Shown: positions 4,596 through 27,199, counted from the first letter of the stretch. The stretch: 30,920 nt of DNA from an uncultured Bacteroides sp. (GCA_964437995.1 CAYTJB010000007.1:1-30920), one strand, 5' to 3'. Notes: a model not told the origin generated them from the letters alone. Numbers and translations are program-made.

Positions 4596-5471
4596 TTGCC
4601 CGATTATAAAATCTGTCCTTTTTCAAATAACGATTTATTAACGAACAGATTACTTCCCAAAAGTAATAAAATTGATGATTTTTTTTCATCAAGATTTCCT
4701 CAAAAAAAATACATATATACTTCAACTGGAAGAGAAGCTATTTATTTAGCTTTAGAAAGCTATAAACTTCAAGCTAACGATGTAGTTACAATTATTACTA
4801 CTACTGATAATTATTATATTAGTGGCTGTGTAACCAACGAGATTGAAAAGTTTTGTAAATGGTCAAGAGTTATTGAACAAAACACAAAGCTTCTTTTTGT
4901 AAATCATGAGTTTGGCTATCCTTATGAGGAACTGCTTGAATTAAAAAAATATCAGTTGCCCATAATTGAAGATTGTGCACATTCATTTTTTTCAAGTGAT
5001 AAAAAAAACATAATTGGTACAGTTGGAGATTATGTAATTTATAGCTTTCCAAAAATTTTTCCTATACAAATAGGAGGATTATTGGTAAACAACGCTAACA
5101 ATGAACTATTAAAAAAAAGCGTGTTAGGAGAAAGCGAATGCAAATATATTAAAAACGTGCTTTCTTATTACATTCAAAGCAAGGACGAAATTATTGATAA
5201 ACGCTTGCATAACTATTTATATCTATCAACCAAATTCAAGGAATTAGGATTTACAGAACGTTTTGAACTTACAGATGATATAGTGCCTGGTGTTTTTATG
5301 TTCCAAAAAGGCAGTCATAAAATTGAATTGCCCGAATTTAAAAAATATTTTTATGCTCATGGCATTCAGTGTAGTGTTTTTTACGGAGAAGAATCGTTTT
5401 TTTTACCTGTTCATCAAGCATTGAATGAGGATGACCTTGATTATTTTATTGAAGTAATGAAATCTTTTTAA
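4596..5471 (+). CDS. Compact DegT/DnrJ/EryC1/StrS-like PLP-dependent protein (start uncertain)
   Basis: HEFG, IIEDCAHS, YSFPKIFPIQIGG and C-terminal LPVHQ motifs. About 290 aa, shorter than typical family members. TTG start called, but the frame is open from 4560. Confidence 0.7.
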   Translation: MPDYKICPFSNNDLLTNRLLPKSNKIDDFFSSRFPQKKYIYTSTGREAIYLALESYKLQANDVVTIITTTDNYYISGCVTNEIEKFCKWSRVIEQNTKLLFVNHEFGYPYEELLELKKYQLPIIEDCAHSFFSSDKKNIIGTVGDYVIYSFPKIFPIQIGGLLVNNANNELLKKSVLGESECKYIKNVLSYYIQSKDEIIDKRLHNYLYLSTKFKELGFTERFELTDDIVPGVFMFQKGSHKIELPEFKKYFYAHGIQCSVFYGEESFFLPVHQALNEDDLDYFIEVMKSF

Positions 5472-5484
5472 AACAATAAAAATA

Positions 5485-5988
5485 ATGAAATTTGCAAATA
5501 TAACTTTAGGTTCTGATGTAGAAATCGATCCTTCAACTTCTTTCAATAATGTAATTATTGGAGATTATGTCAAAATTGCCAAGCGATGCAGTATTTTTGG
5601 CAGCCCTAATAATTTGCTCGAAATAGGTGCAAATTCAATTATTTCGATGAATAGTATTATAAACGGTTTTGCAGCTAAAGTAACAATAGGGAAAAACGTT
5701 GGAATTGGTCAAAATACAAACATAATGGCTGACTCTGGACCAACTAATTCGCCAGAAATGTTAAAAGTTTTTCCACTCGAAAAGGGTCCTATAAATATTG
5801 GAGATCACTGTTGGATTGGTGCAAGTGTAATTATTATGCCTAATGTTTCATTAGGTAATTATTGTGTTGTGGCTGCAAATAGTTTTGTAAATAAATCTTT
5901 TCCTACATTCTCAATCATTGGCGGGAACCCTGCAAAATTGATACGAAATTTCACAAAAGAAGAAATAAAAAAAATTCAAGGGAAATGA
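5485..5988 (+). CDS. Hexapeptide-repeat (left-handed beta-helix) acyltransferase, candidate amino-sugar N-acyltransferase
   Basis: Repeated [LIV]G-x-x-x-x-[IV] hexapeptides, [18 protein letters not shown]. Confidence 0.8.
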
Positions 5989-7118
5989 TTAAATTTCTTG
6001 ACTTACAAAAAATAAATGCACAATATACCGAGGAACTCAAATCGGCATCAGCTCGAGTAATTGATAGTGGCTGGTACTTGTTGGGTAAGGAAGTAAAAAC
6101 CTTTGAATCTCATTTAGCAGAATTTGTTGGTGTAAAACATGCCATTGGTTTTGCTAATGGATTAGATGCCTTACGTTTAATACTAAAAGCCTACATAGAA
6201 ATGGGTGTAATGCAGGAAGGCGATGAAATTATTGTTCCTGCAAATACATATATTGCTTCTATATTGGCAATAACTGATAATCGGCTAAAGCCTGTTTTGG
6301 TTGAACCAAATATAAAAACCTATAATCTTGATATTTCTCTAATAGAACAACACATAACTTCTCGTACCCGTGCCATAATGGTTGTACATCTATACGGACA
6401 AGTATGCTGGAGTGAAGAAATGGAAGCTATTGCAAATAAGCATAATCTTAAAATTATTGAAGACAATGCACAAGCTATTGGAGCAAGCTACAGTTATCAG
6501 TCGTCGGATATAAAAAAGACAGGTACTTTAGGCGATGCAGCGGGTTTTAGCTTTTATCCTGGTAAAAATCTGGGTGCATTGGGCGATGCTGGAGCTGTTA
6601 CAACTAATAATGATGAATTAGCGGAAGTAATTCGTGCTTTAGGAAATTATGGAAGCAAACAAAAATACATTAATCATTATCAAGGTTTAAATAGCCGCTT
6701 AGATGAAATTCAAGCGGTTTTTTTGGATGTAAAATTAAAATATATTGATGCAGAAACCCAACGAAGAAGAGAAATTGCTCAGTATTATTGTGAAAACATT
6801 AAACACCCTGAAATAATTTTACCAATATTAGCTAACAGCCAACAGCTAATAGCTAATAATCATGTCTGGCATCTTTTCGTAATTAGAACAAAAAATCGCG
6901 AAAAACTACAAAACTATCTTACTCAAAATGATATCGAAACGCTAATTCATTATCCTATACCACCGCATAAACAACTTGCATATAAAGAATGGAATAAAAT
7001 AAATCTTCCAATAACAGAAAAAATTCACGATGAGGTGTTGAGTTTGCCAATAAGCCCTATTATGAAAAAAACTGAAGTAGAGTTTATTGTAAAAATTATA
7101 AATAATTACCAGTCATAA
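5985..7118 (+). CDS. fdtB: dTDP-3-amino-3,6-dideoxyhexose aminotransferase (FdtB/QdtB, DegT family)
   Basis: MIKFLDL start, [58 protein letters not shown]. Confidence 0.88.
6832..6859 (+). repeat. Heptamer tandem array CYAAYAG inside fdtB (4 units)
   Basis: CTAACAG CCAACAG CTAATAG CTAATAA, read directly; encodes ANSQQLIAN. Confidence 0.8.
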
Positions 7119-14606: not shown

Positions 14607-15839
14607 ATGATGAAGACGCTCCTTCAAATAAATTCAGTTGTAAACTATGGTTCCACTGGAAGAATTGTAGAAGAACTTGGTCAGCTTGCTATTAATAATG
14701 GTTGGAGAAGTTACGTTGCTTATGGTCGTAATAGTAATAAGAGCAAATCAAAATTAATTAAAATTGGAACAGCTTGTGATGTAAAAACACATGGACTTCA
14801 AACCCGACTATTCGATAGACATGGCTTGGGTTCTTGTAATGCAACTAAAAAATTAATTGAACAAATAAAAGAAATAAAACCTGATATAATCCATCTCCAC
14901 AATCTTCATGGATATTACCTAAATATTAACGTTTTATTCAAATATCTAAATGTCAGTAATATTCCAATTGTTTGGACATTTCATGATTGTTGGGCTATGA
15001 CAGGTCATTGCTCATACTTCGATTTTGCTGGATGTGATAAATGGAAAACCGAATGTTATAATTGTCCACAAAAAAAAGAATATCCTTCAAGTTTTGGACT
15101 CGATCAATCAAAAAGAAACTATAATCTTAAAAGGGAATTATTTACATCGGTAAATAACTTAACAATTGTGCCTGTCTCAAAATGGTTGGAAGGAATTGTA
15201 AGACAATCTTTTTTAGCAAAATTTCCAATCCAGGTAATAAACAATGGAATTAACATTGATATTTTTCATGCTTTGCAAGATTTTTCTATCCGTGATAAAT
15301 ATAAATTAAAGGATAAATTTATCATTTTAGGAGTTGCCAATGTTTGGGAACATCGCAAAGGGCTTAAAGATTTTATTGAATTGAGTATAAACTTAGACTT
15401 AAATTATCAAATTATTTTAGTTGGATTAACTGAATCTCAGAAAAAAAAACTGCCTTCAAATATTATATGTATTTCAAAAACACAAAATACTCAAGAACTG
15501 CAAAGTCTTTATTCAACAGCAGATGTTTTTGTTAATCCTTCTGAAGAAGAAACATTTGGTTTAACAACAGTAGAGGCTTTTGCTTGTGGTACACCTGCAA
15601 TTGTATACAATGCCACAGGAAGTCCGGAGTTAATAACATCTGAGACAGGCATTATTGTTGAAAAAGGAGATATAACAGGCTTAATTAATGCGATTAACAT
15701 TATAAAAGAAAAAGGCAAAAGTAGTTTCAGCATTGCCTGTAGAGAACATGCAAAAAAGTTTTATAATAAAAATGATCGTTATTTAGATTATATAAATTTA
15801 TATGAATCGATGTTAAAACAAAAAACAGACATCATATAA
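14607..15839 (+). CDS. Glycosyltransferase family 4 (WcaC-like)
   Basis: GSTGRI, PDIIHLHNLHG, WTFHDCWAMTGHC, EETFGLTTVEAFACGTP. Confidence 0.88.
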   Translation: MMKTLLQINSVVNYGSTGRIVEELGQLAINNGWRSYVAYGRNSNKSKSKLIKIGTACDVKTHGLQTRLFDRHGLGSCNATKKLIEQIKEIKPDIIHLHNLHGYYLNINVLFKYLNVSNIPIVWTFHDCWAMTGHCSYFDFAGCDKWKTECYNCPQKKEYPSSFGLDQSKRNYNLKRELFTSVNNLTIVPVSKWLEGIVRQSFLAKFPIQVINNGINIDIFHALQDFSIRDKYKLKDKFIILGVANVWEHRKGLKDFIELSINLDLNYQIILVGLTESQKKKLPSNIICISKTQNTQELQSLYSTADVFVNPSEEETFGLTTVEAFACGTPAIVYNATGSPELITSETGIIVEKGDITGLINAINIIKEKGKSSFSIACREHAKKFYNKNDRYLDYINLYESMLKQKTDII

Positions 15840-15874
15840 AATTCTTATTATCAGCATATTTTAATTTATATACT

Positions 15875-16894
15875 ATGTTTAAAAACAAGATTTTACTTAT
15901 CACTGGAGGTACAGGTTCTTTTGGTAACGCTGTACTCAACCGTTTTCTAAATACTGAAATTAAAGAAATTCGCATTTTTTCGCGTGACGAAAAAAAGCAA
16001 GACGACATGCGGCATAAATTGCAAAATTCAAAGTTAAAATTTTATATTGGCGATGTTCGCGATAAACAGAGTGTAGATGCCGTTATGAAAGATGTTGATT
16101 TTGTTTTTCATGCAGCAGCCTTGAAACAAGTTCCTTCCTGTGAATTTTTTCCAATGCAGGCGGTAAAAACCAATGTAATAGGAACAGAAAATGTATTAGA
16201 ATCTGCTATTTCGCATGGAGTAAAGAATGTTGTAGTTTTAAGTACAGATAAAGCATGTTACCCAATCAATGCAATGGGAATTAGCAAAGCAATGATGGAG
16301 AAAGTTGCCATTGCTAAAGGCAGAGCATTAGGGAAAAATGCAAACACAACAATCTGCTGCACACGCTATGGAAACGTAATGGCATCAAGAGGTTCTGTAA
16401 TTCCTTTGTTTATTGAGCAAATAAAAGCAGGAAAAAACCTCACAGTTACTGATCCGAATATGACCCGCTTTATGATGACATTGGAAGATGCAGTTGATTT
16501 GGTTATTTATGCGTGGGAACATGGGAAAAATGGCGACCTTTTTGTGCAAAAAGCACCAGCTGCAACCTTAGAAACTTTGACTAAAGCTATTATTTCTCTT
16601 TACAAATCTAACGTTACTGTAGGTGTAATAGGCACTCGTCATGGAGAAAAACTTTACGAAACATTGGTTACACGCGAAGAAATGTCTAATAGTAGGGATA
16701 TGGGTAAATATTTTTGTATTCCTTGCGATGCAAGAGATTTGAATTATGATAAATTTTTTATAGAAGGCGAAGAAGAAATTGCCAACATTGAAGATTATCA
16801 TTCTCATAATACTGAAAGATTAGATATTGAAGGCATGAAAAACTTGTTGTTGAAATTAGATGTGATAAGGGAAGATATTAATAATGATTGGTAA
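15875..16894 (+). CDS. fnlA: UDP-GlcNAc 4,6-dehydratase/5-epimerase (FnlA/WbjB/CapE)
   Basis: LITGGTGSFG, FSRDEKKQ, HAAALKQVPSCEF, STDKACYP, RYGNVMASRGSV, DLNYDKF, YHSHNT. Confidence 0.93.
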   Translation: MFKNKILLITGGTGSFGNAVLNRFLNTEIKEIRIFSRDEKKQDDMRHKLQNSKLKFYIGDVRDKQSVDAVMKDVDFVFHAAALKQVPSCEFFPMQAVKTNVIGTENVLESAISHGVKNVVVLSTDKACYPINAMGISKAMMEKVAIAKGRALGKNANTTICCTRYGNVMASRGSVIPLFIEQIKAGKNLTVTDPNMTRFMMTLEDAVDLVIYAWEHGKNGDLFVQKAPAATLETLTKAIISLYKSNVTVGVIGTRHGEKLYETLVTREEMSNSRDMGKYFCIPCDARDLNYDKFFIEGEEEIANIEDYHSHNTERLDIEGMKNLLLKLDVIREDINNDW

Positions 16895-16912
16895 TTTGTG
16901 ATTAGTAATTGG
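16885..16912 (+). repeat. Heptamer array (TRATTNG x4), left flank of four-helix-bundle gene 1
   Basis: TGATTGG TAATTTG TGATTAG TAATTGG; contains the last codon and stop of fnlA. Confidence 0.8.
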
Positions 16913-16933
16913 CAAAAAATCAAATCATAAAAA

Positions 16934-17294
16934 ATGAAAACGTATAAAGATTTAGATGTTTGGAAATTAAGTATAAATTTTGTTAGTGAAATTTATAAAA
17001 TTACAGTTGCGTTTCCTAAAGAAGAAATGTTTGGCATTGTTTCGCAAATGAGAAGGTCAGCAGTATCTATACCTTTTAATATTGCTGAAGGAGCAGCCAG
17101 AAACCATCCAAAAAGAATTTAAACAATTTTTGTATATTGCATTAGGAAGTGTATCTGAATTAAATACACAGCTTGTAATTTCTGAACAATTGGGCTATAT
17201 AAAACTTTCAGAAGTAGAAAAACTTATAAGCTCACTTGAAATAATTTCAAAAATGCTACAAGGACTTATTAGGTCAATAAAAAGTAATTTCTAA
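16934..17294 (+). pseudogene. Four helix bundle protein (23S rRNA IVS-protein family), frameshifted
   Basis: YKDLDVWK, FPKEEMFG, SQMRRSAVSIPxNIAEG in one frame; EFKQFLYIALGS-SEL-TQL in the +1 frame. The break is one extra A in the A5 run at 17110-17114; removing it gives a 119-aa ORF. Confidence 0.88.
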
Positions 17295-17319
17295 TTAACT
17301 AATTACCAATTACCATTCA
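17291..17319 (+). repeat. Heptamer array (CYAATYA x4), right flank of four-helix-bundle gene 1, inverted relative to 16885-16912
   Basis: CTAATTA A CTAATTA CCAATTA CCATTCA; contains the stop of the bundle gene and ends 3 bp before the fnlB ATG. Confidence 0.8.
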
Positions 17320-17322
17320 CTT

Positions 17323-18456
17323 ATGCTAAAGATAGGAATAACAGGACAAGCAGGGTTTGTCGGAACTCATTTGTTCAATACATTAAATCTTAAAAAAGAC
17401 GAATTTCTTACTATTCCTTTTGAAGATGAATTTTTTCAAAGTGAGGAAAAGTTAAAGTTTTTTGTTAAGCAATGTGATGTAATTGTGCATTTAGCAGCTA
17501 TGAATAGGCACAACGATGCCGAAGTAATTTATAATACAAATATTGAATTAGTTAAACAACTGATTGTAGCCTGTGAAGCCACAAATTCTAAACCACATAT
17601 CTTGTTTTCTTCATCAACACAAGAAGAAAGAGATAATTTATATGGAAAATCTAAAAAAGAAGGCAGACTTTTATTTGAACAGTGGGCAGCAAGAAACAAT
17701 GCTGTTTTTACAGGTTTAATAATACCTAACGTATTTGGACCTTTTGGACATCCTTATTATAATTCTGTAATTGCTACTTTTTGCCATCAACTCACACATA
17801 ACGAAACGCCCAAAATTGACATAGATGGCGAGTTAAAGCTCATTTACATTGACGAACTGATAAAAGAAATTCTCATACCAATTACCAATCACCAATCACT
17901 AATCACTAATTACCAATTACCAATTACTATTCCACACACCTCAACTATCAAAGTTTCCGATTTGCTTCAAAAGTTGAATACTATAAAAACAAACTATTTT
18001 GAAAAAGGAGAAATCCCATCTCTACAAAGCGATTTCGATAGAAATTTATTTATTACTTTTCTTTGCTATGTTGACCATAAAAGCTTTTTCCCGTTTATGC
18101 TGAAGAAAAACACTGATAACAGAGGCTCTTTTGTAGAAACAGTAAAGTTGAACAGTGGAGGGCAAATTTCATTTTCTACAACGGTTACGGGTATTACACG
18201 TGGTAATCATTTTCATACCCGCAAAGCCGAACGGTTTGCAGTAATTAAAGGAAAAGCATTGATTGAATTAAGAAAAATAGGATGCAATGAAGTTTTATCT
18301 TTTGAATTAGATGGAGAAAATCCTTCTTTTGTAGATATGCCTATTTGGTACACACATAATATCAAAAACATAGGAACTGAAGAATTGTATACTATTTTCT
18401 GGATCAATGAGCATTTTGATGCCAACGACCCGGATACTTTTTTTGAAGCTGTTTAA
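17323..18456 (+). CDS. fnlB: UDP-2-acetamido-2,6-dideoxy-hexulose reductase with C-terminal cupin (FnlB/WbjC/CapF)
   Basis: GITGQAGFVG, HLAAMNR, YGKSK, PNVFGPF-PYYNSVIATFC, DNRGSFVE, RGNHFHTRK, DMPIWYTHNI. Confidence 0.92.
   Translation: MLKIGITGQAGFVGTHLFNTLNLKKDEFLTIPFEDEFFQSEEKLKFFVKQCDVIVHLAAMNRHNDAEVIYNTNIELVKQLIVACEATNSKPHILFSSSTQEERDNLYGKSKKEGRLLFEQWAARNNAVFTGLIIPNVFGPFGHPYYNSVIATFCHQLTHNETPKIDIDGELKLIYIDELIKEILIPITNHQSLITNYQLPITIPHTSTIKVSDLLQKLNTIKTNYFEKGEIPSLQSDFDRNLFITFLCYVDHKSFFPFMLKKNTDNRGSFVETVKLNSGGQISFSTTVTGITRGNHFHTRKAERFAVIKGKALIELRKIGCNEVLSFELDGENPSFVDMPIWYTHNIKNIGTEELYTIFWINEHFDANDPDTFFEAV
17878..17926 (+). repeat. Heptamer tandem array CYAATYA x7 inside fnlB
   Basis: CCAATTA CCAATCA CCAATCA CTAATCA CTAATTA CCAATTA CCAATTA; encodes PITNHQSLITNYQLPI. 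Confidence 0.92.
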
Positions 18457-18460
18457 TAAA

Positions 18461-18488
18461 AGCTTTTAGCAATTAGCTTTTAGCTTGA
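18461..18488 (+). repeat. Heptamer array (AGCWDTT-type x4), left flank of four-helix-bundle gene 2
   Basis: AGCTTTT AGCAATT AGCTTTT AGCTTGA, starting 5 bp after the fnlB stop. Confidence 0.75.
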
Positions 18489-18539
18489 AATCAGTGGATT
18501 ATATTATGAATTTACTAAAACCGAAAAGCTAAAACTGAA

Positions 18540-18893
18540 ATGAAAGATTTTAGAACGCTATAGGTCTGGCAAAAAAGCCATTCATTAACAATAGATATAT
18601 ATCTTCTTACATAGGAAATACCTAAAAGTGAATTATATGGATTAACTTCACAAATAAGAAGAGCCGCATCTTCCATTCCTACAAATATTGCAGAAGGTTG
18701 TGGAAGAGGAAGCGACAAAGATTTTGCAAGATTTATTCAAATTGCTATGGGTTCTGCAAGCGAAATTTCTTATCTATTAATTTTGATTTCAGATTTAAAC
18801 TATATTGATAAATCAATTGCACTAAATATGATTGAGAAAGTAAACGAAATCATGAAAATGCTATCGGCTTTAATAAAAACACTAAAGAAATAA
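18540..18893 (+). pseudogene. Four helix bundle protein (23S rRNA IVS-protein family) with two in-frame TAG codons; absent from the ORF track
   Basis: Manual translation: MKDFRTL*VWQKSHSLTIDIYLLT*EIPKSELYGLTSQIRRAASSIPTNIAEGCGRGSDKDFARFIQIAMGSASEISYLLILISDLNYIDKSIALNMIEKVNEIMKMLSALIKTLKK. TAG at 18561 and 18612; TAA at 18891. Confidence 0.92.
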
Positions 18894-18907
18894 TTTTTAA
18901 ATGCACC

Positions 18908-18954
18908 CTATTAGCTGTTAGTTTCTAACAGCTAATAGCTAACAGCTAACAGCT
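18908..18954 (+). repeat. Heptamer array CTAAYAG with perfect 14-bp hairpin, right flank of four-helix-bundle gene 2
   Basis: CTATTAGCTGTTAG (18908-18921) TTT CTAACAGCTAATAG (18925-18938), then CTAACAG CTAACAG CT directly before the fnlC ATG. Confidence 0.9.
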
Positions 18955-20091
18955 ATGAAAAATTCCAAACTCAAAGTAATGACCGTAGTTGGTACACGTC
19001 CAGAGATTATCCGACTATCATGCGTATTGCAAAAATTAGATGCTTCCGAAGTTATTGACCATGTATTGGTTCACACCGGACAGAATTACGACTATGAATT
19101 AAACGAAGTATTTTTTGAAGATTTAGGCTTGCGAAAACCCGATTTCTTTTTAAATGCTGCTGGTGGTAATGCTACAACTACGGCAGGGCAAATACTAATC
19201 AGTATTGACGCTGTTTTGGAAGAAGTAAAACCCGATGCCTTCCTTGTATTGGGCGATACAAATAGTTGCTTATGTGCTATTGCTGCAAAGAAAAGACATA
19301 TTCCTATTTTTCACATGGAAGCTGGCAATCGTTGCTTCGACCAGCGTGTTCCCGAAGAAAGTAATCGTAAAATAGTAGATCATACAGCCGATATTAATCT
19401 TACTTACTCTGATATTGCAAGGGAATATTTATTACGAGAAGGCTTGCCAGCCGACAGAGTAATAAAAACAGGCAGTCCGATGTATGAAGTGCTTATGAAT
19501 TATATGCCAAAAATTAAGAAATCAAATATTATCGAGAAATTACAACTCAAAAAACAAGCATATTTTGTGGTTTCGGCACATAGAGAAGAAAATATTTCCT
19601 CTGAAAAGCATTTTTTAAATTTGGTAAATATTTTGAACCAAATAGCTGAAAAATACAATTATCCTGTAATTGTGAGTACTCATCCGCGTACAAGGAAAAT
19701 GATTGAAAAAACAGGTGTTAGCTTTCATAAAAATATCAATTTAATGAAGCCAATGGGCTTGAGTGATTACATTTCATTGCAAATGAATGCCACAGCCGTA
19801 TTATCTGATAGTGGAACTATTTCGGAAGAGTCGTCAATTCTAAATTTTAGAGCACTCAATATTCGTGAAGCTCATGAACGTCCCGAAGCTATGGAAGAAA
19901 CTTCGGTAATGATGGTTGGTTTAAATCCGGAAAGAGTAATGCAAGGCTTGGTACAATTGCAATACCAAAATATTGAAAACAGAAATTTCCGTCAGGTTAA
20001 TGATTACAGCATGCCTAATGTTTCTGACAAGGTAGTGAGAATTATTTTATCATATACCGATTATATTAAACGTGTAGTTTGGAGCGAGTAA
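18955..20091 (+). CDS. fnlC: UDP-N-acetylhexosamine 2-epimerase, non-hydrolysing (FnlC/WbjD/CapG)
   Basis: VVGTRPEIIR, HTGQNYD, GDTNS, HMEAGNR, HREEN, SDSGTISEE, ERPE; follows fnlA-fnlB. Confidence 0.92.
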   Translation: MKNSKLKVMTVVGTRPEIIRLSCVLQKLDASEVIDHVLVHTGQNYDYELNEVFFEDLGLRKPDFFLNAAGGNATTTAGQILISIDAVLEEVKPDAFLVLGDTNSCLCAIAAKKRHIPIFHMEAGNRCFDQRVPEESNRKIVDHTADINLTYSDIAREYLLREGLPADRVIKTGSPMYEVLMNYMPKIKKSNIIEKLQLKKQAYFVVSAHREENISSEKHFLNLVNILNQIAEKYNYPVIVSTHPRTRKMIEKTGVSFHKNINLMKPMGLSDYISLQMNATAVLSDSGTISEESSILNFRALNIREAHERPEAMEETSVMMVGLNPERVMQGLVQLQYQNIENRNFRQVNDYSMPNVSDKVVRIILSYTDYIKRVVWSE

Positions 20092-20108
20092 CAATTTTTG
20101 AAATCTAA

Positions 20109-21320
20109 ATGAAGCTATTAATTGTAAGTCAGGTTTTTTGGCCCGAAAATTTCAGGATAAACGACCTGTGTACAGAATTAGTTAAACTTGGACACGAAGT
20201 AAGTGTAATTACAGGCAAACCAAATTACCCAAAAGGTAAATTTTATAAAGGTTATGGCTTATTTTCAAAAATAAAAAGCGATTATAACGGTGCTACTGTT
20301 TATCGCATTCCAATAATACCAAGGGGAAGTGCTTCAGGTTTAAGCCTTTCGATAAACTATTTATCTTTTGCATTTTTTGCATCTATTTTTGCATTTTTTC
20401 ACAGAAAAAAATATGATTTTTCTTTTGTTTTTGCTGTTTCGCCCATTACATCTGCATTACCTGCTATAGTTCATAGAGCTGTTTATGGCACCAAGCATTA
20501 TTTGTGGGTATTGGATTTGTGGCCCGAAGGCGTTGAGGTAACAGGAAAACTAAAATCGAAATTTCTTAAAAAACAATTATATTCGTTGGTTAAATTTATT
20601 TATCGGAAATCAGATAAAATTTATGTGTCTTCGCGGTTTATGGAAAATTCTATCGTTGAAAAATTACCAACAAATCATAAAAAAGAAATCATTTATTTAC
20701 CTAATTGGGCAGAAGACCATTTTGTGTCAGAAAATGTGGATAAAACTAAATACGCTTCATTAATACCAAAGGGTTTTATCATTATGTTTGCTGGTAATAT
20801 TGGATTTGGGCAAGATTGCCCTTCTATAATAAAGGCTGCACAATTATTACAGGCTGAAAAAAACGTTAAATTTGTTTTATTGGGCGATGGGAGCGAAAAG
20901 CAATACATGGAACAGCAAGTAAAAGAATTAGGTTTAGAAAATACTGTTTATTTTTTAGGCAGTTATCCAATTGAAGAAATGCCACATTTCTATTGCCATG
21001 CAGATATGATGTTACTAACACTCAGAGGAGGTTCAATTTATAATTATACTGTTCCCGGTAAACTACAAAGCTATCTTGCTTCAAAAAAGCCAATTGTAGC
21101 AATGATAAACGGAGAAACAAAAGAAATAATCGAAAAAAGCAAAAGTGGAATTGTAGTAAATGCTGAAGATTATAAATTATTTGCTGAAAAGATAGCTGAA
21201 GTAGCAAAAAAACCCAAATCTATTTTTGAAGAAATGGGACAGAATGGCTATGAATATTATTTTAAAACCTTTACAAAGAAAATCGTAATTACCACATTAT
21301 TGGATTCAGTAAAAAATTAA
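20109..21320 (+). CDS. Glycosyltransferase family 4 (WbuB/WbjE-like, candidate L-FucNAc transferase)
   Basis: SQVFWPENFRIND, GKPNYPKG, LDLWPE, FAGNIG-GQ, PGKLQSYLAS; directly after fnlABC. Confidence 0.88.
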   Translation: MKLLIVSQVFWPENFRINDLCTELVKLGHEVSVITGKPNYPKGKFYKGYGLFSKIKSDYNGATVYRIPIIPRGSASGLSLSINYLSFAFFASIFAFFHRKKYDFSFVFAVSPITSALPAIVHRAVYGTKHYLWVLDLWPEGVEVTGKLKSKFLKKQLYSLVKFIYRKSDKIYVSSRFMENSIVEKLPTNHKKEIIYLPNWAEDHFVSENVDKTKYASLIPKGFIIMFAGNIGFGQDCPSIIKAAQLLQAEKNVKFVLLGDGSEKQYMEQQVKELGLENTVYFLGSYPIEEMPHFYCHADMMLLTLRGGSIYNYTVPGKLQSYLASKKPIVAMINGETKEIIEKSKSGIVVNAEDYKLFAEKIAEVAKKPKSIFEEMGQNGYEYYFKTFTKKIVITTLLDSVKN

Positions 21321-25008: not shown

Positions 25009-26088
25009 ATGTCAAAAATAGCCTTAATTACTGGTATTACAGGACAAGACGGTTCTTATTTAGCCGAATTTCTTATAGAAAAAGGATACGAAGTACACGG
25101 TATTATGCGTCGTGCTTCTTCTTTTAACACTGCACGAATTGAACACCTTTATTTTGATGAGTGGATAAAAGATACTCACCAAAAGCGTAGCATTAATTTG
25201 CATTATGGTGATATGACCGATAGTAGCTCTCTTATCCGTATTATACAATCAGTACAACCCGACGAAATTTATAACTTGGCTGCACAAAGCCATGTACAAG
25301 TGTCGTTTGAAGTGCCGGAATATACAGCCGAATCAGATGCTGTGGGCACATTGCGTATATTAGAAGCTGTTCGCATTTTAGGTATGGAAAAGAAATGCAA
25401 GATATATCAAGCTTCTACCTCTGAGTTATATGGCAAGGTACAGGAAGTACCTCAAAAAGAAACTACGCCTTTCTATCCTCGTTCGCCTTATGGTGTTGCC
25501 AAGCAATATGGTTTTTGGATTACAAAAAATTATCGCGAATCTTATGGCATGTTTGCTGTAAACGGTATTCTTTTCAATCACGAAAGTGAGCGTCGTGGCG
25601 AAACTTTTGTTACACGCAAAATCACATTGGCTGCAAGTCGTATTGCTCATGGTTTGCAAAAGAAATTGTATATGGGTAATTTAGATGCTTTACGCGATTG
25701 GGGCTATGCTAAAGATTATGTGCAATGTATGTGGATGATGTTGCAACACTCAGAACCCGAAGATTTTGTAATTGCAACTGGCGAAATGCATACCGTACGT
25801 GAGTTTATTGAATTGGCTTTTAAAGAAGCAAATATTGAAATTATATGGCAAGGAAAAGGTATAGATGAAAAAGGCATTAATAAAACTACAAAAGAAATAT
25901 TGGTAGAAGTAGATTCAAAATATTTCCGTCCTGCAGAAGTAGAGCAACTCTGTGGCGACCCTACTAAAGCAAAAACATTACTTGGCTGGAATCCAACCCA
26001 AACGCCTTTTAAAGAACTTGTAAAAAAAATGATGAAACACGATTTGGTGTATGTGAAAAAGTTGCATGAGTCGAAAGTTGAGATTTAA
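25009..26088 (+). CDS. gmd: GDP-mannose 4,6-dehydratase
   Basis: [66 protein letters not shown]. Confidence 0.97.
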
Positions 26089-26092
26089 AAAA

Positions 26093-27199
26093 ATGGAAAA
26101 ACACAGTAAAATATACATAGCCGGACACAAAGGTCTTGTCGGCTCTGCATTATGGAACAATTTGCTTTCAAAAGGCTATACAAATCTTATTGGAAAAACA
26201 ATAGAGGAACTTGATTTGATGAATCAACAAGCTGTGGAAGCGTTTTTTGAAACAGAAAAACCTGAATATGTTGTTCTTGCAGCTGCTAAAGTTGGAGGTA
26301 TTGTAGCAAATAATACCTATCGCGGACAATTTATTTACGAAAATCTTCAAATACAAAACAACGTTATTCATCAAGCCTATCTGAGCGGCGTAAAAAAACT
26401 TCTTTTTTTGGGTTCAACCTGCATTTATCCTCGTGATGCTCAACAACCCATGCCCGAAGATTGTTTGTTAACAGATGTATTGGAATACACCAACGAACCT
26501 TATGCCATTGCTAAGATTGCTGGATTAAAAATGTGTGAGAGCTATAATCTTCAGTACGGAACTAATTTTATAGCTGTAATGCCTACCAATCTTTATGGTC
26601 CTAATGATAATTTTGATTTAGAAAAAAGTCATGTATTGCCAGCTTTGATTCGTAAAATATATTTGGGTAAATGTCTTGAAAATTCTAATTGGCAAGCAAT
26701 TCGCGAAGATTTGAATAAACGACCTATCGAAAAAATTGATGGAAATGCAACAGAACAAGCTATTCTAAGTATTTTATCAAACTATGGAATGAAAGTAAAT
26801 CAACACCCAATTTCTGTGGAGATTTGGGGAAGTGGTAAGCCTTTGCGCGAATTTTTGTGGAGCGAAGAAATGGCAGATGCTTGCATTTACATTATGGAAA
26901 ATGTTGATTTTAAGGATATTGTTAATAGTTCGGCAAATCAATTAAATACGCAAGTTAAAGAAATTCGCAATACTCATATCAATATTGGTACAGGGAAGGA
27001 AATTACAATAAAAAACCTTGCACATCTTATCAAAGAAACGGTTGGTTTTAAAGGAAACCTTGAATTTAATGCTTCTAAGCCCGATGGCACTACGCGTAAA
27101 CTTACCAATCCTTCAAAATTGCATAGTCTTGGTTGGCATCACAAAATTGAAATAGAAGAAGGTATTAGAAAAATGTACGAATGGTATGTTCAAAATTAG
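26093..27199 (+). CDS. fcl: GDP-L-fucose synthase; start set at Met10 of the called ORF
   Basis: IAGHKGLVGSA, LAAAKVGGI, LGSTCIYP, YAIAKIAG, MPTNLYGPNDNF, SHVLPA, WGSGKPLREF, KPDGT. Confidence 0.96.
   Translation: MEKHSKIYIAGHKGLVGSALWNNLLSKGYTNLIGKTIEELDLMNQQAVEAFFETEKPEYVVLAAAKVGGIVANNTYRGQFIYENLQIQNNVIHQAYLSGVKKLLFLGSTCIYPRDAQQPMPEDCLLTDVLEYTNEPYAIAKIAGLKMCESYNLQYGTNFIAVMPTNLYGPNDNFDLEKSHVLPALIRKIYLGKCLENSNWQAIREDLNKRPIEKIDGNATEQAILSILSNYGMKVNQHPISVEIWGSGKPLREFLWSEEMADACIYIMENVDFKDIVNSSANQLNTQVKEIRNTHINIGTGKEITIKNLAHLIKETVGFKGNLEFNASKPDGTTRKLTNPSKLHSLGWHHKIEIEEGIRKMYEWYVQN

Follow-up and report, generated by a model that had tools for sequence, protein, structure and literature searches.

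Degenerate copies of a probable intervening-sequence-like cassette at the gene junctions of a Bacteroides fnl polysaccharide operon

We analysed a 30,920-nt stretch of DNA from an uncultured Bacteroides sp. (GCA_964437995.1 CAYTJB010000007.1:1-30920; hereafter the window), a surface-polysaccharide locus in which three successive genes encode FnlA-, FnlB- and FnlC-like enzymes. The fnlA-fnlB and fnlB-fnlC junctions each carry a gene of the PF05635/TIGR02436 four-helix-bundle family once its defects are bridged, and each of these genes lies between the arms of its own family of inverted heptamer arrays. The two junctions probably hold degenerate copies of a selfish cassette that resembles the intervening sequences (IVSs) of 23S rRNA, settles at operon junctions and has arms that would pair as a stem in the transcript. 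A first-pass annotation of the window had proposed a small mobile or RNA-level element at these sites. This interpretation was partly supported: it was largely right in kind and too narrow, and it had overlooked that both bundle genes of the window are pseudogenes.

With the defects bridged, the products of cassettes 1 and 2 scored 134.3 and 137.0 bits against Pfam PF05635 (cut-off 33.8; E 2e-39 and 3e-40) and 130.8 and 139.0 bits against TIGR02436 (cut-off 24); the nearest solved structure was XCC0516 (PDB 2gsc, E 7e-25). Neither window cassette contains an intact translatable bundle open reading frame (ORF). In cassette 1, the extra A causes a +1 frameshift that leads to a premature TAA at 17120-17122, and the orthologue of this gene in locus L001 is intact. 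In cassette 2, the two in-frame TAG codons are located at 18561-18563 and 18612-18614. Since the region 16800-19000 is identical, defects included, in two independent metagenome contigs (ENA ERZ27262927 and JGI 3300020048), sequencing error was rejected as their source and the defects are real. Stop-codon recoding was rejected as well: TAG ends 4 of the 31 window ORFs, and the other ORFs are intact under translation table 11. We conclude that both bundle genes are real pseudogenes. Judged by their perfect conservation apart from the defects, they appear to be recent.

Over 30 bp, the 5' arm of each cassette is the reverse complement of its 3' arm. In cassette 1, positions 16885-16912 pair with 17295-17324 (-27.1 kcal/mol), and the arms of cassette 2 pair with -30.1 kcal/mol. 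The polarity is the same in both, with G/T-rich arms on the 5' side and A/C-rich arms on the 3' side, which bears out the T-rich and A-rich strands described before. Four periodic segments at lag 7 were found in the window, as compared with 0.04 expected from 200 Markov simulations, and none at lags 4-6 or 8-12. In RNA folding, the minimum free energy and centroid structures of cassette 1 were both closed by arm-arm pairing (z -3.2), and cassette 2 gave a partial closing stem and a local hairpin (z -4.0). The proximal short copy of the complementary unit in cassette 2, CTAAAACCGAAAAGCTAAAA, pairs only weakly (-12.7 kcal/mol); such a three-array layout is common to cassette 2, L001, L008, L043 and a copy from Pseudanabaena. 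The arrays indeed contain or abut the codons of their neighbours, as had been noticed: the last codons and the TAA stop of the fnlA-like gene fall within the 5' array of cassette 1, and the fnlB and fnlC starts lie 3 and 0 nt after the respective 3' arms. Likewise, both repeat families recur as in-frame solo arrays, one in fnlB and one in an aminotransferase gene (Table 1). The fnlB array encodes PITNHQSLITNYQLPIT in the hypervariable interdomain linker of FnlB and is complementary to the 5' arm of cassette 1 (26 bp, -31.8 kcal/mol).

Table 1 Features of the two cassettes, their host genes and the related solo arrays in the window (TRF, Tandem Repeats Finder)
Feature	Coordinates	Strand	Remarks
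Solo array, cassette-2 family, TAGCTAA x4.3	6829..6858	+	in frame, in DegT/FdtB-like aminotransferase gene 5985-7118; TRF score 39
FnlA-like UDP-GlcNAc 4,6-dehydratase/5-epimerase (host gene)	15875..16894	+	TIGR04130; PF02719 E 3e-105
Cassette 1 5' arm, TGATTGG TAATTTG TGATTAG TAATTGG	16885..16912	+	four G/T-rich heptamers; repeat finders
Cassette 1 bundle pseudogene (PF05635/TIGR02436)	16934..17294	+	extra A in A5 run 17110-17114
Cassette 1 3' arm, ACTAATT ACCAATT ACCATTC	17298..17319	+	A/C-rich; last base 3 nt before fnlB ATG
FnlB/WbjC-like reductase (host gene)	17323..18456	+	NF047837; PF14667 + PF01370
Solo array in fnlB, cassette-1 family, TACCAAT-type x7.4	17876..17927	+	in frame; TRF score 69
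Cassette 2 5' arm, AGCTTTT AGCAATT AGCTTTT AGCTT	18461..18486	+	begins 5 nt past fnlB stop; TRF score 38
Cassette 2 proximal short copy of complementary unit	18515..18534	+	between 5' arm and ORF
Cassette 2 bundle pseudogene (PF05635/TIGR02436)	18540..18893	+	two in-frame TAG codons, otherwise intact
Cassette 2 3' arm, local hairpin 18911-18937 and CTAACAG/CTAATAG array	18910..18954	+	abuts fnlC ATG 18955; TRF score 55 for 18925-18955
FnlC/WecB-like UDP-GlcNAc 2-epimerase (host gene)	18955..20091	+	TIGR00236

The association of bundle genes with such arrays was followed in 80 fnl loci obtained from an FnlB scan, mostly metagenome-assembled genomes of Bacteroidales, Prolixibacteraceae and Lentimicrobiaceae, in which bundle genes were found by iterative profile search. 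The 59 bundle ORF matches, all of them on the operon strand, correspond to 52 bundle loci, about a quarter of which (13) are defective; strong purifying selection acts on the intact proteins (median dN/dS 0.075). The tandem repeats in these loci mostly had a period of 7 or a multiple of it. Arrays of period 7, 14, 21 or 28 were present on both sides of 52% of 48 bundle genes, compared with 2% of 626 other genes (p 2e-23). The enrichment of inverted arrays that the first-pass annotation had suggested checking was confirmed, with inverted-complement heptamer arrays at 37.5% of bundle genes and 0.3% of other genes (odds ratio 187, p 1e-20). Sequence near bundle genes makes up 5.5% of the total and holds 30% of all arrays (p 1e-30), and the median duplex energy of the flanks was -43 kcal/mol for cognate arms versus -29 kcal/mol for non-cognate (swapped) arms (p 2.5e-10). 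Where genes other than bundle genes had arrays on both sides, the arrays were not complementary. The idea that arrays form the boundary of any accessory gene was therefore rejected, also in view of the 9-12.5-nt repeats used by the PDDEXK_3 genes described below.

The fnlA, fnlB and fnlC genes had been taken to be normally contiguous, which is not the case in the lineage of the window, where gaps of at most 60 nt occur in only 8 of 78 fnlA-fnlB and 17 of 70 fnlB-fnlC junctions. Junction lengths range widely, down to empty junctions such as those of L051 (10 and 12 nt) and L042 (13 and 27 nt). Some loci carry several bundle copies (three in L004, five in L045), and three paralogous copies in L045 (1538-4564) are interrupted by an identical in-frame stop (ESYP*SELYG); it follows that a cassette was duplicated with its arrays within this locus after it had become a pseudogene. 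Gene-less arrays and in-frame arrays within genes are common, including in fnlB and fnlC of many loci. That the solo arrays are footprints of excision, in the sense of the suggested microsatellite footprints, was not supported.

The proposal of a mobile unit was upheld by the cassettes of L027 and L029, whose ORFs are 97.7% identical and which occupy different sites, one upstream of fnlA and the other at the fnlB-fnlC junction. Homology between them runs from the first 5' array unit to the last 3' array unit, the flanking DNA is unrelated, and the host fnlA and fnlB genes of the two loci are only 86% identical. In L027, the fnlB-fnlC junction is empty, with a spacer of 7 nt. Empty sites therefore exist, as had been anticipated, but the target duplication expected with them was not seen: none was visible between the filled site of L029 and the empty site of L027, a single pair of diverged sequences. 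The comparison of copies shows a discrete unit that spreads horizontally and inserts in sense between co-directional genes. We also observed that the filled junction of L029 (7170-7685, compared with 7173-7181 in L027) coincides with a switch of fnlC type, as the fnlC genes are 62% identical versus 86% for fnlA and fnlB; the polysaccharide locus therefore has a recombination breakpoint where the cassette lies.

In pairs from different genomes and junction classes, heptamer similarity tracked protein identity (Mantel r 0.32, p <= 0.0005): heptamers were shared by 69% of the pairs with at least 75% protein identity and by essentially none under 55%. Proteins with the N-terminus MKTHHDLDVWKK... 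go with TCACAGA in the 3' arm and GTGATCT in the 5' arm, those starting FEDLDIWKDAR... with AAGGTTC (5') and TTGAACC (3'), and those starting NDLExRLFDF... with AAAGACA (5') and CTTTTAT (3'). The clade of window cassette 1 has AATTACC and AATCACG, and that of cassette 2 has AGCTAAC and AGCTAAA. By this comparison, each protein clade carries its own heptamer, even across phyla.

A second sample consisted of 80 unrelated metagenome loci (GC 31-63%) from a scan with a 12-sequence clade alignment. Of 65 loci, 46 had an array on one side or both, and 29 had arrays on both sides. When one mismatch was allowed, 30 of 36 cognate units were reverse complements, versus 5% of non-cognate pairs. Polarity was nearly fixed, since G exceeded C in 43 of the 5' arrays (with 3 the other way) and C exceeded G in 42 of the 3' arrays (with 1 the other way). 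The arms had ~4.4 (5') and ~4.3 (3') units, the spacers were ~23 nt from the 5' array to the start and ~5 nt from the stop to the 3' array, and stems formed by the arrays only had a median of 26 bp. Both neighbours were co-oriented with the cassette in 49 loci and opposed in 2. From these data, the canonical cassette consists of ~4 G-rich heptamers, a short leader, a PF05635 ORF and ~4 C-rich reverse-complement heptamers. A 29-sequence cross-phylum alignment of bundle proteins contained no conserved stretch of 7-10 columns.

No bundle cassette lay within an rRNA gene in the 80 metagenome loci. Cassettes were found between cas6 and cas4, beside nrd genes and between tRNA genes. That the element targets junctions of polysaccharide operons was hence right as far as the sense-oriented siting at junctions is concerned, and wrong in the specificity for polysaccharide genes. 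In L147 (1231-1850), (TTTAGTA)x4.7, an ORF and (ACTAAAT)x3.7 lie between two co-directional tRNA genes; such a setting, in an operon of stable RNA, falls between those in mRNA and in rRNA. Of the six copies that we examined on cyanobacterial plasmids, five had the array-gene-array layout. The Nostoc edaphicum plasmid has (AGTAGGG)x8, gene and (TCCCTAC)x5, the Stanieria plasmid AAGGCAG, gene and CCTTCTG, and the Calothrix plasmid TTAGCTG, gene and AGCTAAA; in Anabaena sp. 90 pANA02 (L086) and Pseudanabaena galeata pPg_01 (L087), long heptamer arrays and the gene are located between cas6 and cas4 of type I-D loci. In the copy on the Nostoc PCC 7120 plasmid, the 3' array is Stanieria-like, a matching 5' partner is not evident, and directly upstream there is a gene for an ISL3 transposase. 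Window cassette 2 has its closest relatives in the proteins of Calothrix and Pseudanabaena (56-60% identity), which come with its AGCTAAA-type heptamer.

We propose that the cassette, which has no evident promoter, is transcribed together with the host operon. Its arms would pair into a stem of ~26-30 bp, looping the ORF out and bringing the upstream stop beside the downstream start. By analogy with 23S IVSs, whose ORFs belong to the same family, RNase III probably acts on the stem, and insertion within an operon may be tolerated because the looped-out stem is processed in this way. Slippage or local recombination would lengthen and shorten the arrays and give rise to related solo arrays in the vicinity, including the in-frame ones in fnlB and in the aminotransferase gene. 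The bundle family has been reported as a pentameric ring (Lin et al. 2006, as cited in PMC4990558). Our favoured guess is that such a ring-shaped pentamer binds its cognate heptamer run; one ring might bind one run because the ring is pentameric, an arm has ~4-5 units and the heptamers are clade-specific.

Several observations weigh against this proposal. Array-only duplexes did not differ in stability between the strands, with 19 cases for sense and 15 for antisense (p 0.37), and only ~6% of their pairs are G-U, so that G-U wobble did not tell an RNA stem from a structure at the DNA level. When 120-nt flanks were included, the antisense strand paired better (35 of 39), but this is an artefact of composition, as C/A-rich arrays lie on both sides. 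No arrays were detectable at about 30-45% of bundle genes, half of all arrays lie away from any bundle gene, and some cassettes have arrays of the same polarity on both sides, with the inverted partner farther upstream. In some cyanobacterial copies, the cassette runs antiparallel to the adjacent genes. No enzyme for mobility could be identified, and since both window copies are pseudogenes, any function of the protein is absent here.

A more far-reaching version, which we regard as tentative and rather doubtful, would make the PF05635 cassettes ancient, cross-phylum, self-recognising elements, in which the pentamer binds ~5 of its own heptamers on the transcript, as TRAP does on triplets, and thereby toggles the stem. 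If this were so, binding would control processing or translation at the junction, and perhaps the element's own spread, possibly via an RNA intermediate. The 23S IVSs, much of the cyanobacterial load of short tandemly repeated repetitive (STRR) sequences, the "CRISPR-associated" intervening-sequence protein (IVP) genes and the repeat-encoded peptide inserts would then be one element family.

The near-perfect complementarity of the arms, with few G-U pairs and no advantage of the sense strand, could also reflect an element that acts at the DNA level. Its arrays would be binding or recombination sites (iteron-like or hairpin/cruciform) for the bundle protein or an unlinked enzyme, for example a RAYT/HUH-type or other single-strand DNA transposase, and its arms would be the ends for movement. 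The exact stop of homology at the array edges fits this idea, as does the co-variation of heptamer and protein clade, which is like that of transposases and terminal repeats, and as do gene-less inverted array pairs such as that in the 113-nt fnlA-fnlB gap of L037. However, the cassettes and their vicinity contain no nuclease, recombinase or transposase, the single filled/empty pair shows no target-site duplication, and a 7-bp period is short for repeated binding of double-stranded DNA. Furthermore, the near-absolute sense orientation and the cleavage that RNase III has been shown to perform in the relative from Coxiella (PMC4990558) speak for RNA, and we consider the DNA-level explanation unlikely. 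The L037 pair itself (5322-5442) consists of (ATAAAAG)x5 followed by three units of CTTTTGT type with no gene between them, and it shares its heptamer family with the intact cassette at the next junction and with the in-frame fnlB array of that locus.

The arrays could also serve the host as contingency repeats, in which gain or loss of 7 nt, within fnlB or the aminotransferase gene or across the fnlA stop or the fnlC start, would shift the frame and toggle surface-polysaccharide genes, with the bundle genes as bystanders or regulators. In agreement with such a switch, arrays overlap stop and start codons, in-frame heptamer arrays are present in fnlB and the DegT gene and recur in fnlB or fnlC of many loci, and array lengths vary between orthologous cassettes (e.g., L046 and L062). 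Yet the window arrays are imperfect (78-91% matches) and identical in three independent assemblies, cassettes are also present among cas, nrd and tRNA genes, for which a phase variation of glycans has no relevance, and neither the inverted complementarity nor the clade-specific heptamers would be explained; a host switch is therefore improbable. Finally, the long simple sequence repeats of many genomes most often have heptanucleotide units (Mrazek 2007, as cited in PMC4679880), half of the arrays do not adjoin a bundle gene, and array-rich genomes (L029, L013, L041) carry arrays around other genes, but a mere coincidence of slippage-born microsatellites with small accessory genes that gather in the same AT-rich gaps is hardly credible given the odds ratio of 187, the cognate pairing far above the non-cognate one, the polarities of 43:3 and 42:1, the clade-specific heptamers conserved across phyla, and the non-complementary flanking arrays of other genes together with the different repeat type of PDDEXK_3 genes in the same gaps. 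We therefore retain the IVS-like operon-junction cassette as the probable explanation.

Cassettes and arrays also touch the coding sequence of their neighbours. In L073 (7544-7700) and L029 (7660-7700), the 3' arrays can be read as an N-terminal extension of the downstream gene or supply its start codon, and 5' arrays can give the upstream gene its C-terminal residues and stop codon, as at the FnlB end of L073 (...EKVSSVIGNL*). The FnlB linker (aa ~185-200 in the window, the same column block in L001-L080) is hypervariable in length, with fnlB genes of 1119-1215 nt in the loci printed. Its peptides are repeat-derived (ITNHQSP for the heptamer type; NTVKHCET or RTQITQIEQ...NQCHPCS for the PDDEXK_3 type), and the type of DNA repeat is the same as that of the cassette at the adjacent junction of that genome.

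Other small genes occupy the fnl junctions too. A PDDEXK_3/GxxExxY-like family (PF13366, E 4e-40) accounts for 41 ORFs in the 80 fnl loci, all on the operon strand (e.g., L004 7393-8273, L006 5574-5945, L020 7389-7766 and L031 1693-2076), and is flanked by inverted 9-12.5-nt units (CACAGTGTAA, AATCAGCG/AATCTGCG and CGCAGAG/CTCTGCG) with no heptamers. Gene-less hairpins of 167-270 nt made of repeats of this type fill the fnlB-fnlC junctions of L026 (7174-7340), L040 (7174-7444, two tandem copies), L013 (7174-7432) and L032 (7174-7340), and look like derivatives of the PDDEXK_3 cassette type comparable to miniature inverted-repeat transposable elements (MITEs). The commonest occupant of fnlA-fnlB junctions is a ~140-aa family without Pfam match (36 ORFs, always on the operon strand, e.g., L049 4960-5511), which may be a genuine pathway gene; its presence explains the median fnlA-fnlB distance of 538 nt.

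The window itself has a GC content of 31%, with all large ORFs on the plus strand. Its products include FdtA-like cupins, an acyltransferase, DegT aminotransferases, a flippase, glycosyltransferases, and GDP-mannose dehydratase and Fcl-like enzymes. As already noted in the first-pass annotation, no transposase or integrase is encoded in the window, and the domain search of its 31 ORFs revealed no reverse transcriptase either. The 2-epimerase passes TIGR00236 (238 bits, cut-off 210), FnlA scored 571 bits against TIGR04130 (under the equivalog cut-off of 730) and the WbjC-type reductase 245 bits against NF047837 (under the cut-off of 500). From these profile scores, the family-level assignment of the three enzymes is clear, and fnlABC (UDP-L-FucNAc) is their putative pathway. 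A search of the junction RNAs against Rfam gave no match at E <= 1 in 15500-20500. At the head of the locus, two small ORFs (2116-2808), one of DUF5674 (113 aa, E 3e-37) and one of 115 aa without Pfam match, follow a 467-nt gap downstream of a truncated pyruvate:ferredoxin-oxidoreductase-like gene (72-1649); they are neither bundle nor PDDEXK_3 genes. An apparent insert of ~40 aa in the Fcl-like ORF 26066-27199 proved not to be repetitive.

If the proposed cassette is real, the uncharacterised four-helix-bundle/S23p family (PF05635) gains a coherent biology as the cargo of a mobile cassette, and 23S IVSs, the STRR-type repeats of Cyanobacteria and Bacteroidota, and the IVP genes in cas and polysaccharide operons are tied together. 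PF05635 ORFs have been reported in insertions in 16S and 23S genes of the Candidate Phyla Radiation and between cas genes of many types, and a "CRISPR association" of 23S_rRNA_IVP genes has been published (PMC3936711). The junction-cassette model would account for these occurrences without any CRISPR function; the association may reflect junction insertion rather than function, which calls for caution with guilt-by-association assignments such as "CRISPR-associated". The cassettes are also a possible source of repeat-encoded linker peptides and slippage-prone tracts in surface-polysaccharide genes. If real, the match between heptamer and protein clade would provide a compact, programmable system for the recognition of repeats by proteins.

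Among known systems, integron cassettes are similar in that they are promoterless ORFs placed co-directionally in a transcribed array and that an imperfect inverted-repeat site goes with each of them. In contrast, the cassettes described here have no integrase, attI or attC, are bounded by heptamer arrays on both sides, and always carry one protein family as cargo. With repetitive extragenic palindromic (REP) sequences and bacterial interspersed mosaic elements, with REPIN-RAYT systems (REP doublets and their REP-associated tyrosine transposases) and with MITEs, they share short structured repeats at gene ends or between co-directional genes, inverted pairs, gene-less copies and the lack of a locally encoded enzyme. 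The differences are that the arms are tandem arrays of variable length instead of a fixed hairpin or terminal inverted repeat, that they enclose a conserved non-nuclease ORF, and that no RAYT was identified and no target duplication seen. With no transposase in the window and inverted arms made of tandem arrays, the window cassettes do not classify as insertion sequences or MITEs.

Avd of the diversity-generating retroelements has a distantly related four-helix-bundle fold; it is a pentameric, nucleic-acid-binding partner of the reverse transcriptase. The window bundle genes differ in standing alone, with NF033474 scores of 20.9 and 21.7 bits (cut-off 80), and we found neither a reverse transcriptase domain in the 31 window ORFs nor a template/variable repeat pair in the window.

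Heptanucleotide repeats are also known as cyanobacterial STRR sequences, long simple sequence repeats and the intergenic TAACTGA repeats of Beggiatoaceae, Cyanobacteria and Bacteroidetes, which have been described as repeats only (PMC4679880). The likeness lies in tandem 7-nt intergenic units in the same phyla, some of them in-frame, and often directly upstream of starts in fixed orientation. The window arrays, as tandem 7-nt units beyond chance expectation, belong to this class, which is descriptive and implies no mechanism. The reports differ in giving no link to a flanked PF05635 gene, a reverse-complement partner or co-variation with protein clades, and the cassette heptamers have many sequences, not one. 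Our search of the openly accessible literature found no paper that links PF05635 genes to bracketing inverted heptamer arrays beyond the heptamers of the Coxiella IVS.

The closest parallel are the 23S IVSs with S23p/PF05635 ORFs, which occur in Coxiella burnetii, Leptospira, Xanthomonas and Brucella; RNase III excision is known only for rRNA IVSs (PMC4990558). The IVS of C. burnetii comprises 428 nt with a 28-bp terminal stem and a decaying S23p ORF, and directly upstream of the S23p start it carries three to four copies of GACAGAT, whose number varies between strains and at the first of which RNase III cuts (PMC4990558). The link to 23S IVSs drawn in the first-pass annotation is accordingly stronger than was claimed. 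In both kinds of element, terminal inverted repeats of ~28-30 bp close a loop in which the same protein family is encoded in sense; both are ~430-490 nt in size, need a host transcript and often have a decaying ORF. In both, heptamers adjoin the ORF and vary in number, and Coxiella GACAGAT compares with CACAGAT or TCACAGA in several cassettes. They differ in that both arms of a cassette are heptamer arrays, and in that RNase III cleavage, demonstrated for Coxiella, is for the cassettes proposed by analogy. The location is different as well: the cassettes lie between genes of mRNA operons or tRNA genes and not in helix 9, 25 or 45 of 23S rRNA, and in the window the 30-bp arm duplexes form complementary termini that enclose each insert between protein-coding genes. 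As far as their sequences tell, the cassettes are an IVS-type element living in mRNA operons.

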